A stretch of DNA of 64,000 nt, from the sequence record OQ025076.1, one strand, 5' to 3'. Below the pieces are notes generated by a model, which searched no databases, was not told the origin of the DNA, and saw only the letters and a program-made list of their open reading frames with translations. The DNA is from Escherichia phage vB_EcoP_YF01. Made by a program: the position numbers and the translations under genes. Below, piece after piece: positions 34,908 to 36,221 of the stretch; positions within the stretch are counted from its first letter, which is position 1, and each line of letters opens with the position of its first letter.

Positions 34908-36221
34908 TTAGTTATTTGTTTCTACGTCAAAAGAGATTCCACGACCCGCTTCATCAGCAAACCGAACTGTACGGGTTTGAGGTTCTAATACTTCAGGGTT
35001 GTTGGTAACAAATCGATCAGCGAGACTATCTACCACATCTTGGGCCACACCTTCATCAGTCCACACAGCCCTAACAGGTGCGTTGATATCACCAACAGCA
35101 AAACCCTGACCAGAGAACTGACGTGCGCTAACAGTTAAGCCATTTGGTCGACCACGAGAGGGTCTAGCCATCCATCGCTCCATAGAATCACTTGTAATAC
35201 CGAGAGCTTCTTCAAAAGATGTTCTACGAGTAGGGCTTACTCTTCGTGACTCCTGTGCTCTACGCATTGCAGGGGCTACAAACACCCCTTCAATTGCATT
35301 GTGTCGGTTAGGTTCCTCTTCTCGACCAAGCAGATCACCACCCGTGTTAGTCGTTAAATTTGTCAACCCTTCAGACCAATACGCATGAATCTGGCTAGAG
35401 CCATGTGTGCTTGACATTAACTGAATCTCTTCATAAGGGATTCCAAAGAATCGACTCATGTCACGGTCAACACAATACTGAGCACTTGTTGTATCCTCAA
35501 TAAGAGCAACCTGACCTCGTTCGTTGACCAGATGGTTAACTGGTTGAGGTGTAGGAAGGTATCGAGTTTGGGCCATGTATTGATGTGCAACTGCTGGAGA
35601 GGAAAACCTCAATACCTGAGAGTTAGGCCATTTCTTGTGAACATACCTGATTTCACGACTAGAAACAACCACTGGACAAGGGGCGGTCATAGCCAAATAT
35701 CCGTGAGAGGTCATGAATAATTTGTCAAGAGTCATCGCACCACGACACATCATAGGAAAATTATCCAATACCTCTTCAATAGAAGTAGGATAGTTAAACA
35801 TGAATTGGATACGAACCCCATTCCACTGAAACTCAATAATATCAGTGAATGTTAGTTGAGAAGTCCCAGTATACGGCTCATCTGTAGATTCAGCAAGAAG
35901 GGATGCATATTCAATATCTTGTGACTCTAGCCATTCCTTCACATTACTTTCAATCTCTCTTCCAAGAGCTTGCCAACGATCAGTTGGGACGAAAGTATTT
36001 TGAGTTCTTGGTGTTTGTCCTCTGACAATAAAGATATCAATGTCATGTGGAGCTGTGTTATTAAGCACAGCATCACGAACAGCCCCACCAGTAATGATGG
36101 GACAGATACCGTCTGGAACTAAATTGTTGTTAATCAACTGTTCAATGAAGTGACGACCAACAGTGATATCAGGTTGTTGAGCAACCTTATCTTCAATTTG
36201 GTTAATCGGGATAACAATCAT
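34908..36221 (-). CDS. Nucleotidyltransferase (Pol-beta/CCA-adding-enzyme-like head) fused to a ~350-aa uncharacterised domain
   Basis: N-terminal motif ITGGAVRDAVLNNTAPHDIDIFI matches the GG-x-RD...D-x-D signature of class-II tRNA nucleotidyltransferase/poly(A) polymerase heads; ATG 36221. Confidence 0.55.
   Translation of the reverse strand: MIVIPINQIEDKVAQQPDITVGRHFIEQLINNNLVPDGICPIITGGAVRDAVLNNTAPHDIDIFIVRGQTPRTQNTFVPTDRWQALGREIESNVKEWLESQDIEYASLLAESTDEPYTGTSQLTFTDIIEFQWNGVRIQFMFNYPTSIEEVLDNFPMMCRGAMTLDKLFMTSHGYLAMTAPCPVVVSSREIRYVHKKWPNSQVLRFSSPAVAHQYMAQTRYLPTPQPVNHLVNERGQVALIEDTTSAQYCVDRDMSRFFGIPYEEIQLMSSTHGSSQIHAYWSEGLTNLTTNTGGDLLGREEEPNRHNAIEGVFVAPAMRRAQESRRVSPTRRTSFEEALGITSDSMERWMARPSRGRPNGLTVSARQFSGQGFAVGDINAPVRAVWTDEGVAQDVVDSLADRFVTNNPEVLEPQTRTVRFADEAGRGISFDVETNN

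Follow-up and report, generated by a model that had tools for sequence, protein, structure and literature searches.

A fast-diverging, class II-derived nucleotidyltransferase in the replication operon of phiEco32-like phages and its possible kinship with the anti-Gabija protein Gad2

Background

What would a protein with the active-site signature of class II tRNA nucleotidyltransferases and poly(A) polymerases do among the replication genes of a coliphage? A preliminary description of the window, that is, of the whole 64,000-nucleotide stretch of Escherichia phage vB_EcoP_YF01 (OQ025076.1) analysed here, had placed such a gene between those for a dCTP deaminase and a proofreading exonuclease and had read its product as a nucleotidyltransferase (NTase) head fused to a large uncharacterised domain. 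The coordinates confirm this placement, and the genes concerned are as follows.

36774..38564, minus strand: T7 gp4-like primase/helicase, first gene of the conserved block
36223..36780, minus strand: exo, the 3'-5' exonuclease subunit of a split family A DNA polymerase, upstream of the NTase gene (DNA_pol_A_exo1; phrog_38876, phrog_403)
34908..36221, minus strand: NTase coding sequence, complete, 437 aa plus stop; orthologue of phiEco32 gp73 (phi32_73); PHROG 12715
34365..34898, minus strand: dCTP deaminase, downstream, its start 9 nt past the NTase stop (PF22769, E 3.5e-34; phrog_1663)
53251-53326: tRNA-Arg(UCU), 17 kb from the NTase gene

The gene at 34908-36221 is a real one: the minus-strand open reading frame spans 34908-36278, the ATG at 36221 opens the 437-aa product, and the MI(V)IP start common to all homologues falls on this same ATG. 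Over its full length the protein matches phrog_12715 (E 6.5e-246 in the PHROG profile search), and it shares 87% identity with the product of NC_010324 48054-49367, phiEco32 gp73, which is annotated 'nucleotidyltransferase'; the label as such is thus already present in RefSeq. Our literature search found no publication on gp73 function, and scans of the NTase against NCBIfam and PADLOC gave no match. The family is small (34 clusters among 1.84 billion) and is present throughout the phiEco32 supergroup lineages examined. Pairwise dN/dS values of 0.16-0.19 show that the gene is functional.

The catalytic head and its class II ancestry

The folded part of the protein comprises the following elements.

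35772..36221, minus strand: residues 1-150, Pol-beta / class II-like NTase head (helices, GG strand, helix, DxD strand, long helix at 80-100, beta-hairpin at 124-146)
36027..36095, minus strand: residues 43-65, motif A, ITGGAVRDAVLNNTAPHDIDIFI, with the signature G45, G46, R49, D50 and the catalytic pair D60, D62
35784..35816, minus strand: residues 136-146, strand VRIQFMFNYPT with invariant Q139 (alignment, AF2 secondary structure and hhalign to Gad2)
35739..35759, minus strand: residues 155-161, FPMMCRG, putative remnant of class II motif B (RRDFTxNA), aligning to FDFTVCMG of Gad2
35463..35771, minus strand: residues 151-253, family-specific alpha/beta subdomain standing where class II enzymes have their neck (AF2 pLDDT about 57-81)

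The GG/RD/DxD motif of the Pol-beta superfamily that had been noticed in the N-terminal region is borne out by the family alignment, as G45, G46, R49, D50, D60 and D62 do not vary among 34 members with identities as low as 22%, and it is therefore no chance match; the catalytic Asp pair, D60 and D62, is found in every one of the 34 sequences. AF2 predicts the core with confidence, and with its hG[GS] loop and [DE]h[DE]h strand the model has the alpha/beta NTase fold of the Pol-beta superfamily. The order of elements in the head begins N-terminally with helices, before the strand that carries the GG. According to AF2 the folded, family-conserved part of the protein amounts to about 250 residues. 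Beyond motif A it includes F155 and P156, which are invariant, as well as C159, R160 and G161, which are invariant or nearly so in the main clades, and the subdomain 151-253 holds a conserved R-[ED]190-x-x-Y193-x-x-K-K197-W-P199 pattern whose Y193 and K197 never vary in the family alignment and whose P199 hardly does.

How far does the resemblance to class II enzymes go? Motif A, GGxVRD-x(8-10)-DxD, is identical in the NTase and in these enzymes, with a helix preceding the GG strand in both, and residues 45-62 align to the CCA-adding enzyme 6IBP with an E of 0.006 and to a class II profile with an E of 1.8e-6. The hhalign alignments with class II enzymes cover just 24 columns, however, and only motif A is common by sequence. 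Consistent with this, the match to Pfam PF01743 (PolyA_pol head) reaches 21.9 bits against a gathering cut-off of 23 (homologues 20.1-21.5), and the tRNA-NTase PHROG 2244 matches residues 43-67, that is motif A, only (E 0.027). No conserved Arg-Arg-Asp of class II motif B is found in the family, the corresponding stretch reading (L)DNFPMMCRG; motif D, the base-templating [ED]DxxR of the class II neck, is not conserved in the family either, which instead carries the R-[ED]190-x-x-Y193-x-x-K-K pattern, and the profile alignments end before the neck; and neither AF2 nor the sequence reveals the tRNA-binding helical body and tail of class II enzymes. Comparison of the family profile with E. coli Cca/PcnB and global hhalign against a 5-sequence class II profile proved unreliable beyond motif A, and equivalences of motifs B and D are therefore not derivable in that way. 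Searches of family profiles against PDB sequences returned no match for profile A3 and motif A only for profile A4, together with a chance match to uL23 (E 0.36). Net charge of the folded core was rejected as a test for nucleic-acid binding because the Cca heads of E. coli and Bacillus are equally acidic.

These results bear directly on the suggestion that the protein repairs or matures tRNA 3' ends. A genuine tRNA nucleotidyltransferase, adding or repairing CCA, CC or A on phage or host tRNAs, would account for the class II signature, and the genome does have a tRNA gene, as had been pointed out, although it lies 17 kb from the NTase. Against this role stand the lack of motif B, motif D and the tRNA-holding body and tail, the PolyA_pol score below the gathering threshold and the confinement of the PHROG 2244 match to motif A. 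Moreover, the phage tRNA-Arg gene encodes its own CCA, E. coli has Cca, and very fast divergence is ill-suited to a substrate as universally conserved as the tRNA end. The tRNA reading is thereby largely refuted in silico, and we give it next to no chance of being correct. Judged by its motifs the NTase is no CCA-adding enzyme, but appears to descend from the head of a class II CCA-adding enzyme or poly(A) polymerase without the CCA-specific motifs.

The same ancestry lends some weight to a different activity on RNA, namely that of a poly(A)/poly(N) polymerase-like or MenT-like enzyme that tails RNA 3' ends and so labels RNAs or tRNAs to be degraded or inactivated. Extension of RNA 3' ends is the activity of all the nearest relatives that have been characterised, over-expression of relatives is toxic in a manner resembling tRNA-end-modifying NTase toxins, the Arg-rich region 301-370 of the tail could bind RNA, and the gene lies among nucleotide-supply genes (dCTP deaminase, ThyX, thioredoxin). 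The targets would be host or phage RNAs or tRNAs, and the outcome nucleotide salvage or host shut-off. Then again, the protein has no RNA-binding body or tail, short members of the family are devoid of any basic tail, and the RRD motif is missing. In class II enzymes RRD is the sensor of the ribose 2'-OH, and its loss argues against an RNA-specific enzyme. We regard RNA tailing as unlikely, if less so than tRNA repair. The MenT/AbiEii toxins themselves, like the CD-NTases, are structurally further from the NTase than are the class II enzymes; they are host-encoded, show another motif context and are accompanied by antitoxin or effector partner genes, whereas no such partner lies beside the NTase.

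A glutamine at the putative third-carboxylate position

The strand 136-146 is, in the model, the topological match of the class II strand that carries the third catalytic carboxylate, and Q139 would be the equivalent of the class II Glu. This assignment draws on the alignment of the Q139 strand to LQIQLIH of Gad2 by hhalign, on the Glu that the S. suis Gad2 homologue has at this place, and on the hhalign columns, in which the class II Glu and the Gad2 Gln fall no more than one position apart. The NTase would accordingly differ from class II enzymes in presenting a Gln for the third carboxylate. Could it then have the NTase fold but no catalytic activity, and act instead as a nucleotide sensor, a sponge or a scaffold? 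An invariant Gln at this place would be compatible with such a function, as would the long tail, whose short conserved motifs give it an adaptor-like appearance. However, the GG, the RD and the two Asp residues have stayed strictly invariant while the family diverged deeply, which has the look of an active metal/NTP site, and position 127, which lies on the strand adjoining the Q139 strand and is always Asp or Glu in the family, could supply the third ligand. Most Gad2 sequences aligned also carry Gln at the position matching Q139, while Gad2 of SPbetaL7 and the B. laterosporus homologue are biologically active. An inactive protein thus seems to us very improbable, and gp73-type proteins are more readily seen as putative active nucleotidyltransferases.

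The C-terminal tail

Beyond residue 253 the protein changes in character.

34911..35462, minus strand: residues 254-437, variable low-complexity tail (AF2 pLDDT 21-34)
residues 254-300 of the tail: S/G/T-rich, with conserved AYWSEGL at 280-286
residues 301-370 of the tail: Arg/Ser/Pro-rich and basic (pI 11.3)
residues 371-437 of the tail: acidic (pI 4.1), with VWTDE and SLADRF and a possible helix and hairpin at 400-434

The notion of a head joined to an uncharacterised domain of about 350 residues therefore needs correcting, since the folded part extends over some 250 residues and residues 254-437 are low-complexity and indel-rich and form no demonstrable domain. The accompanying observation that the usual helical body is lacking stands, as there is no confident structure after residue 253 and the tail varies in length. 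All indels among close family members lie in the tail, which measures 139-203 aa within the genus, 140-230 aa in Kuravirus and Nieuwekanaalvirus and 22-233 aa across the family; short members end at about residue 275, and distant relatives are without a tail. It nevertheless shows a dN/dS of 0.35-0.40 and so is still under constraint. The low pLDDT of 21-34 partly reflects alignment depth and is no proof of disorder, since AF2 run with close homologues only performs poorly even for the core (mean pLDDT 33, core included); in the Uversky charge-hydropathy test only the segment 301-370 falls on the disordered side.

Relation to Gad2 and to PHROG 1614

Gad2 (Pfam PF26128), found in Bacillus phage SPbetaL7 and homologues, is a validated inhibitor of the Gabija defence system whose mechanism is unsolved; anti-Gabija activity has been demonstrated for the SPbetaL7 protein and a B. 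laterosporus homologue only, and Gad2 goes unmentioned in the paper on the Gabija structure. Precomputed Pfam matches to PF26128, of a grade called weak (E between 1e-5 and 1e-3), exist for 30 of 44 close homologues of the NTase, the cluster of the window sequence itself being without one. In hhalign the family aligns with Gad2 over 92 columns (residues 42-167) at a probability of 90.8%, an E of 1.2e-6 and a score of 51.5, as compared to 22.8 for a reversed decoy. Without motif A a collinear alignment persists, yet with an E of 0.12 (0.42 for the reversed decoy) it is not significant, and the similarity therefore lies mostly in motif A. Searched with an HMM of the Gad2 N-terminal domain built from 9 sequences, the window protein ranks first among 185 window ORFs (E 0.029), and family members reach values up to 1.1e-8, the best of them, P0066, over 140 HMM positions.

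A broader connection is provided by PHROG 1614, which comprises short (about 170-270 aa), uncharacterised phage NTases encoded in the replication modules of T7-like and other podophages. The window protein matches phrog_1614 over the whole head (residues 34-155, E 1.6e-7), other family members do so with values of 5e-9 to 3.5e-11, and verified Gad2 matches it likewise over the whole head (E 2.3e-6); P0092 matches phrog_12715, phrog_1614 and the Gad2 PHROGs together. The PHROGs of Gad2 are 18122, 27100 and 4400. The genomic setting of PHROG 1614 is that of the NTase, among primase/helicase, exonuclease and polymerase genes. Gad2-like short NTases are found repeatedly in T7-type replication modules, namely those of the Ralstonia phage BOESR1, of HZ2201, of L012 and of the P. 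putida phage Emajogi, whose gp22 adjoins gp23; BOESR1 gp25 and relatives of Emajogi gp22 are examples of PHROG 1614. What sets the NTase family apart from PHROG 1614 is its own subdomain of 100 residues (151-253) with Y193 and K197, the tail of its members in Kuravirus and Nieuwekanaalvirus, and its assignment to a separate PHROG, 12715. Taken together, the profile searches place the NTase in a loose set of 'head-only' phage NTases that consists of PHROG 1614 and relatives and includes Gad2. They suggest that the family is related to Gad2, by a link that is weak for the window protein taken alone.

The likeness to Gad2 extends to general architecture. Both proteins are phage-encoded, comprise about 400 aa and begin with a class II-derived NTase head, and they appear to have in common a pattern xAGGxh...ND/HDhDhaF, followed by an h-Q-h-h strand and F-x-(F/P)-x-x-C-x-G. 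Identity is about 20%, however, and limited to residues ~42-167. The NTase family keeps the class II GGAVRD where most aligned Gad2 sequences have GGxITS, and Gad2 possesses a folded C-terminal half of about 200 aa in place of which the NTase has its low-complexity tail, with no similarity between the two; a comparison of the tail with the Gad2 C-terminal profile gave an E of 0.55, no better than a reversed decoy. That half is missing from short Gad2 homologues (214-278 aa) as well. At family level, profiles of the subdomain 151-253 match the neck neither of Gad2 nor of class II enzymes significantly, and residues 168-262 show no similarity to that of Gad2; P0066 alone among the family aligns in this region to the Gad2 HMM. 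Finally, Gad2 resides in a variable anti-Gabija locus (Gad1/Gad2 in SPbeta), in contrast to the fixed replication-operon slot of the NTase. Phage 19-1-2, which came up as a Kuravirus with a canonical Gad2, was rejected since it is a Vequintavirinae fragment.

A fixed position and a fast rate of divergence

The gene order primase/helicase - exo - NTase - dCTP deaminase is conserved in every phiEco32-like lineage examined. The TAA stop of exo lies one base ahead of the NTase ATG (junction AAA ATG TAA A ATG), and stop and start abut in this way in L001, L002 and L015-L018 too. At the same time, no other gene of the replication module diverges nearly as fast as the NTase, which has identities of 82-87% where the flanking genes show 95-100%, of 32-34% where they show 79-96% and of 29-33% where they show 57-80%. 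Pairwise dN/dS gave no sign of positive selection in the NTase, with omega not above 0.4, so that any 'arms race' argument is one from relative rate alone.

The invariant slot directly after exo in every lineage, with abutting stop and start, and the universal occurrence in the phiEco32 supergroup would be expected of a replisome accessory, that is, of a terminal-transferase-like NTase that works with exo on DNA 3' ends or primers, is tethered by its tail and has no part in defence. Maintenance of linear genome ends and processing of primer ends are examples of such work. Related short NTases in other T7-type replication modules fit this picture, loss of RRD is compatible with the use of dNTPs, and aromatic residues terminate several family tails and the primase/helicase, just as they terminate the docking tails of T7 gp4 and gp2.5. 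But why would such an enzyme diverge several-fold faster than its neighbours? For a core enzyme with a universal substrate one would expect a conservation similar to theirs. In addition, the tail is dispensable in many lineages, and T7, to our knowledge, replicates without an NTase of this kind. We consider a purely replicative role possible but doubtful.

The equally strict adjacency to the dCTP deaminase might also be explained by a covalent DNA-modification pathway in which both enzymes take part and which would account for the restriction resistance of Gordonclarkvirinae. Such modification is suggested by the authors of the BASEL study, which reports measured resistance to restriction-modification systems. 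Yet the dCTP deaminase forms an ordinary dTTP supply together with ThyX and dNMP kinase, which, like thioredoxin, are also encoded by the phage, and this speaks against dU-DNA. Strong avoidance of restriction sites, the signature of restriction-exposed DNA, is evident in the genome for CCWGG (5 observed, 83 expected), PstI (0 and 16), BamHI (0 and 10) and EcoRI (5 and 22); for EcoRV the window has 30 sites. The deaminase is conserved at 75-96% where the NTase is at ~30%, which is unlike co-adapted partners, and some phages encode a related NTase with no deaminase gene next to it. Nor do we know of any base-hypermodification pathway that uses a class II-type NTase. A modification role is on these grounds quite unlikely.

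A counter-defence enzyme expressed with the replisome?

The loss of the parts that build CCA and the closest kinship, which is with a group of phage enzymes that includes Gad2, make a counter-defence or DNA-end enzyme likelier than tRNA repair. The reading we tentatively prefer, at somewhat short of an even chance, is that of a phage-specific, template-independent, Gad2-related counter-defence NTase expressed with the replisome. The gene would be co-transcribed, and probably translationally coupled, with primase/helicase, exo and dCTP deaminase, and the protein would therefore be present during phage DNA replication. It may bind an NTP or dNTP through the GG..RD signature and the metal site formed by D60 and D62, Q139 lying at or close to where the third carboxylate usually sits, and transfer the nucleotide to a hydroxyl acceptor which, in view of the class II ancestry, would most likely be a nucleic-acid 3' end. 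Such a transfer might blunt a host system that, like Gabija, detects phage DNA ends or replication intermediates or attacks them; Gabija is currently viewed as acting at phage DNA ends. The variable tail with its short conserved motifs could serve as a flexible tether to a partner. Toxicity upon over-expression, as described for Gad2 and for Emajogi gp22, fits an enzyme with a general cellular substrate.

Several observations weigh against a counter-defence role. Known anti-defence genes are usually sporadic and lie in variable loci, such as Gad1/Gad2 in SPbeta, whereas a replication-block gene that is fixed and universal in the lineages examined favours an integral role in replication or nucleotide metabolism. 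The subdomain 151-253 and the tail have no family-level similarity to Gad2, and an enzyme with Gln where a catalytic carboxylate is expected could polymerise weakly or not at all. Moreover, as the mechanism of Gad2 is unsolved, to state that the NTase works like Gad2 says little.

A more specific version of this counter-defence proposal, which we offer as a speculation and rate as rather doubtful, is that the gp73 family is the enterobacterial-podophage counterpart of Gad2: tethered to the replisome, it would use an unusual Asp-Asp-Gln site to add nucleotides to a host sensor or to the 3' ends of phage DNA, replicating or linear, thus blinding Gabija-type or other end-sensing defences. If true, gp73-type NTases would be one cause of the so far unexplained resistance to defence systems seen in Gordonclarkvirinae, for which the available text of the BASEL paper gives no Gabija result. 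The BASEL isolates Bas86-93, with Kuravirus phages such as Bas90 and Bas91 among them, grow on E. coli K-12, so that, if it is indeed the counterpart of Gad2, the family would offer a tractable system for the mechanism of Gad2.

Gad2 is among the few validated anti-defence proteins that are predicted to be enzymes, and a related family fixed in common, therapy-relevant coliphages would carry its biology into E. coli, a host with easy genetics. The analysis also corrects two tempting annotations, 'CCA-adding enzyme / tRNA repair' and 'DNA-modification enzyme partnered with dCTP deaminase', the latter being countered by the site avoidance and the divergence data, and it draws attention to 'head-only' class II-derived NTases as a recurrent uncharacterised class within T7-type replication modules. 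Should the counter-defence role prove wrong, the NTase would still be the least conserved component of an otherwise rigid replication operon and therefore its most host-specific one.

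The gene and its annotation

The source of the window is a phiEco32-like E. coli podophage (Kuravirus, Gordonclarkvirinae), and the 4.6-kb stretch round the nucleotidyltransferase gene (NTase) is 95-99% identical to DE5, SGF2, Bas90/91 and other phages. The open reading frame put forward in the preliminary description is real:

34908-36278, minus strand: NTase open reading frame; translation from the ATG at 36221 gives 437 aa

The gene is already known and is annotated in general terms: PHROG 12715 covers the protein end to end (E 6.5e-246), and the SU10 orthologue, represented by one peptide in mass spectrometry, has been placed among the early gene products. 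A functional study of the gene was not found in the literature. New here are its placement beside the anti-Gabija protein Gad2 and the short phage nucleotidyltransferases of phrog_1614, the loss of CCA-specific elements, an exceptional divergence within a fixed synteny, and the character of the tail.

The head domain lacks the CCA-specific elements

According to a review of CCA enzymes, class II enzymes carry three carboxylates on the head sheet and a base-templating Asp and Arg in the helical neck, and hold the tRNA by helical body and tail domains. The sole sequence stretch which the NTase family has in common with them is motif A (GGxVRD...DxD, residues 43-65). The family profile matched CCA enzymes in the PDB through ~26 residues only (E 0.006), hhalign comparisons with a profile of five class II sequences, with PcnB and with E. 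coli Cca each gave 23-24 reliably aligned columns, and the tRNA-NTase PHROG match was confined to residues 43-67 (E 0.027). On the strand that by its topology corresponds to the bearer of the third carboxylate in class II, the family has an invariant Gln (IQxM), and residue 127, on the strand next to it, is Asp or Glu in every member; either residue is a candidate for completing the metal site.

The initial assignment to the Pol-beta superfamily was right. Its lead function, CCA addition or tRNA repair, is contradicted by the family alignment, in which neither motif B (RRD) nor motif D ([ED]DxxR) is conserved, by the lack of a helical body in NTase, and by the tRNA gene that had also been noted:

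53251-53326, minus strand: tRNA-Arg(UCU), the single phage tRNA, 3' end ...CGTCCCG-G-CCA

As this end shows, the CCA is genome-encoded, and a true CCA enzyme is highly improbable. An RNA-tailing role would follow from the ancestry of NTase, but the protein has neither an RNA-binding body nor a ribose sensor, and we consider such a role unlikely.

Match to phrog_1614 and probable relationship to Gad2

Precomputed Pfam matches to PF26128, named 'Gad2' and graded weak, are present in 30 of 44 close homologues. Gad2, a protein of ~400 aa from Bacillus phage SPbetaL7, is the second of the Gabija anti-defence proteins; the phage is Gabija-sensitive without it, and a homologue from a Brevibacillus prophage cancels the defence as well. 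Gad2 has an NTase domain according to AlphaFold prediction, and the SPbetaL7 copy is toxic. As late as February 2026 the mechanism of Gad2 was given as unknown.

Using our own profile, built from the homologues in Supplementary Table 10 of the Gad2 paper, hhalign aligned the family core with Gad2 over 92 columns (window residues 42-167; probability 90.8%, E 1.2e-6), pairing VRIQFMF with LQIQLIH and NFP-MMCRG with FDFTVCMG, as compared to only 24 columns with class II enzymes. Gad2 itself aligns to class II over 152 columns and is thus a class II derivative too. The controls call for caution: a reversed Gad2 decoy scored 22.8 versus 51.5 for the real alignment, but with motif A removed the collinear alignment had an E of only 0.12 (decoy, E 0.42). 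The Gad2 link is weak for the window protein by itself, which ranked first among the 185 window ORFs with the Gad2 N-domain HMM at E 0.029 only, whereas other family members match far better (P0066, E 1.1e-8, HMM positions 26-165). Moreover, phrog_1614 matches the whole head of the window NTase (1.6e-7), of other family members (to 3.5e-11), of verified Gad2 (2.3e-6) and of short Gad2 homologues (~1e-8), and the homologue P0092 is at once a match to phrog_1614, to the Gad2 PHROGs and to the PHROG of the window family. The curated PHROG profiles are an independent bridge between the NTase family and Gad2. No Gad2 similarity was found in the tail or the 151-253 subdomain, and the family is not canonical Gad2. 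Taken together, the NTase family is probably part of an assemblage, specific to phages, of head-only nucleotidyltransferases that derive from class II and include Gad2.

Other podophages, too, have nucleotidyltransferases of the phrog_1614 type within their replication modules:

Ralstonia phage BOESR1: primase/helicase - ORF - NTase - ORF - DNA polymerase
Pseudomonas phage HZ2201: NTase among polymerase, SSB and exonuclease genes
Contig L012: NTase with helicase, polymerase and ribonucleotide reductase

The NTase of P. putida phage Emajogi, gp22, adjoins the primase/helicase gp23 and is toxic when over-expressed; in some related phages its homologues are annotated as Gad2 family.

Functional claims for NTase are all inferential. 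At somewhat less than an even chance, we prefer to see it as a Gad2-related counter-defence nucleotidyltransferase expressed with the replisome. It would move a nucleotide onto a 3' end or other acceptor, and this transfer would blunt a host system directed against replication intermediates or the ends of phage DNA. Current views place the action of Gabija at the ends of the phage genome.

Fixed synteny and exceptional divergence

Apart from a few divergent sequences, word-indexed searches of 5.8 billion proteins returned members of the Kuravirus and Nieuwekanaalvirus types only, and exhaustive HMMER over 1.84 billion representatives gave a family of 34 clusters. Wherever context was available (phiEco32, EP335, KBNP1711, three 82-90-kb IMG/VR contigs and four Logan contigs), the order was primase/helicase - Pol A exonuclease subunit - NTase - dCTP deaminase. 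The exonuclease stop abuts the NTase start (TAA-A-ATG in the window), and promoter or terminator signals did not rise above chance. NTase is a fixed core operon member and not a sporadic accessory gene, which is the strongest argument against the counter-defence reading and favours a replisome accessory or terminal transferase, a possible but not a likely role.

NTase is by far the fastest-diverging gene in its block.

Identity of NTase and of its flanking genes
Within Kuravirus: NTase 82-87%; flanking genes 95-100%
Against Nieuwekanaalvirus: NTase 32-34%; flanking genes 79-96%
Against distant contigs: NTase 29-33%; flanking genes 57-80%

Pairwise dN/dS was 0.16-0.19 for NTase versus 0.00-0.12 for most neighbours, its dS was higher too, and positive selection on NTase was not detectable by this measure. 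These values indicate a gene that is functional and under weaker constraint, with allele mosaicism. A dead scaffold is very unlikely, this and a true CCA enzyme being the least likely readings. A part in DNA modification, an idea put forward in the BASEL paper, is quite unlikely because the genome encodes ThyX, restriction sites (CCWGG, PstI, BamHI, EcoRI) are strongly avoided, and deaminase and NTase evolve at very different rates.

In the Kuravirus contig L006 (IMGVR_UViG_3300045988_017452), otherwise 97-100% identical, the dCTP deaminase is 59% identical to that of the window (34365-34898), which indicates allele replacement beside NTase.

The C-terminal region

An alpha/beta subdomain peculiar to the family (AF2) occupies residues 151-253 and contains a conserved R-[ED]-x-x-Y-x-x-K-K-W-P. 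The preliminary description had envisaged an uncharacterised domain of ~350 residues with a Pro/Arg/Ser-rich end; segment 301-370 is indeed Arg/Ser/Pro-rich and basic (pI 11.3), but residues 254-437 contain no demonstrable domain. All close-family indels fall there, and the tail measures 139-203 aa in the genus and 22-233 aa family-wide, many members totalling only ~280 aa. S/T/N/Q/G/P make up 35-57% of the tail in all family members except one, segment 371-437 is acidic (pI 4.1), and 301-370 is the only segment that a charge-hydropathy plot classes as disordered. When AF2 was run again on close homologues only, the mean pLDDT was 33 and even the core failed, so that low pLDDT is partly due to alignment depth; both runs predicted C-terminal helices 400-412 and a hairpin 416-434 identically. 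Purifying selection persists in the tail (dN/dS 0.35-0.40), which has short islands in common with the Nieuwekanaalvirus version (WS/TxxL, AMxRA, a VWxDE motif and DSxAD). We infer a flexible linker with short binding motifs.

An alignment of close homologues of window 34908-35100 shows the tail to be polymorphic within Kuravirus. Some isolates carry a 16-22-residue insertion (consensus LDIPSHGELAETVSR, some adding SLSD or NLAD) that the window lacks, and in P0023, P0024 and P0032 an alternative C-terminus ...PQVGGELDQLLNSQNIR replaces ...TRTVRFADEAGRGISFDVETNN. Aromatic C-termini occur in family members P0063, P0067, P0069, P0071, P0074, P0075 and P0076 (...SEYDF, ...TWDW, ...RWQW, ...GGWTF, ...REVW, ...RFNF and ...RSEW), the C-terminus of the primase/helicase (window 36774-36830) is ...ADGASPW, and Nieuwekanaalvirus NTase versions have an acidic ...VWVDESDSIAD. 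T7 gp4 and gp2.5 have C-terminal docking tails, of which all these ends may be thought reminiscent.

Neighbouring genes and restriction sites

Two separate genes, ~8 kb apart, encode the split family A DNA polymerase as a 185-aa exonuclease subunit and a 614-aa polymerase subunit:

36223-36780: exonuclease subunit
26170-28014: polymerase subunit
32265-32540: phage thioredoxin

The processivity factor of T7 polymerase is host thioredoxin, which makes the phage's own thioredoxin of interest. Two further groups of genes were noted:

33749-34364, minus strand: tandem array of three small ORFs of 69, 69 and 65 aa, immediately downstream of the dCTP deaminase gene
38784-44009, minus strand: gamma-glutamyl cyclotransferase-like, ATP-grasp (RimK-like) and glutamine amidotransferase genes, a conserved cluster just upstream of the replication block

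The small ORFs all match phrog_4939 (unknown function, E ~1e-27), have W5, T-R, A-R, K and a C-terminal ...KV(I/H/Y)Y in common at 23-28% pairwise identity and are paralogues; related phages have three to four copies. The second cluster is syntenic even in distant contigs, and in phiEco32 amidoligase genes lie beyond it.

Relative to a first-order Markov expectation for window 1-64000, strong depletion of restriction and methylation sites (observed versus expected) was seen for CCWGG (5 vs 83), PstI (0 vs 16), BamHI (0 vs 10), EcoRI (5 vs 22), GGCC (54 vs 111) and GATC (143 vs 242). EcoRV (30 vs 16), EcoKI (7 vs 6.5) and HindIII were not depleted, and CAGCAG was enriched (73 vs 33).
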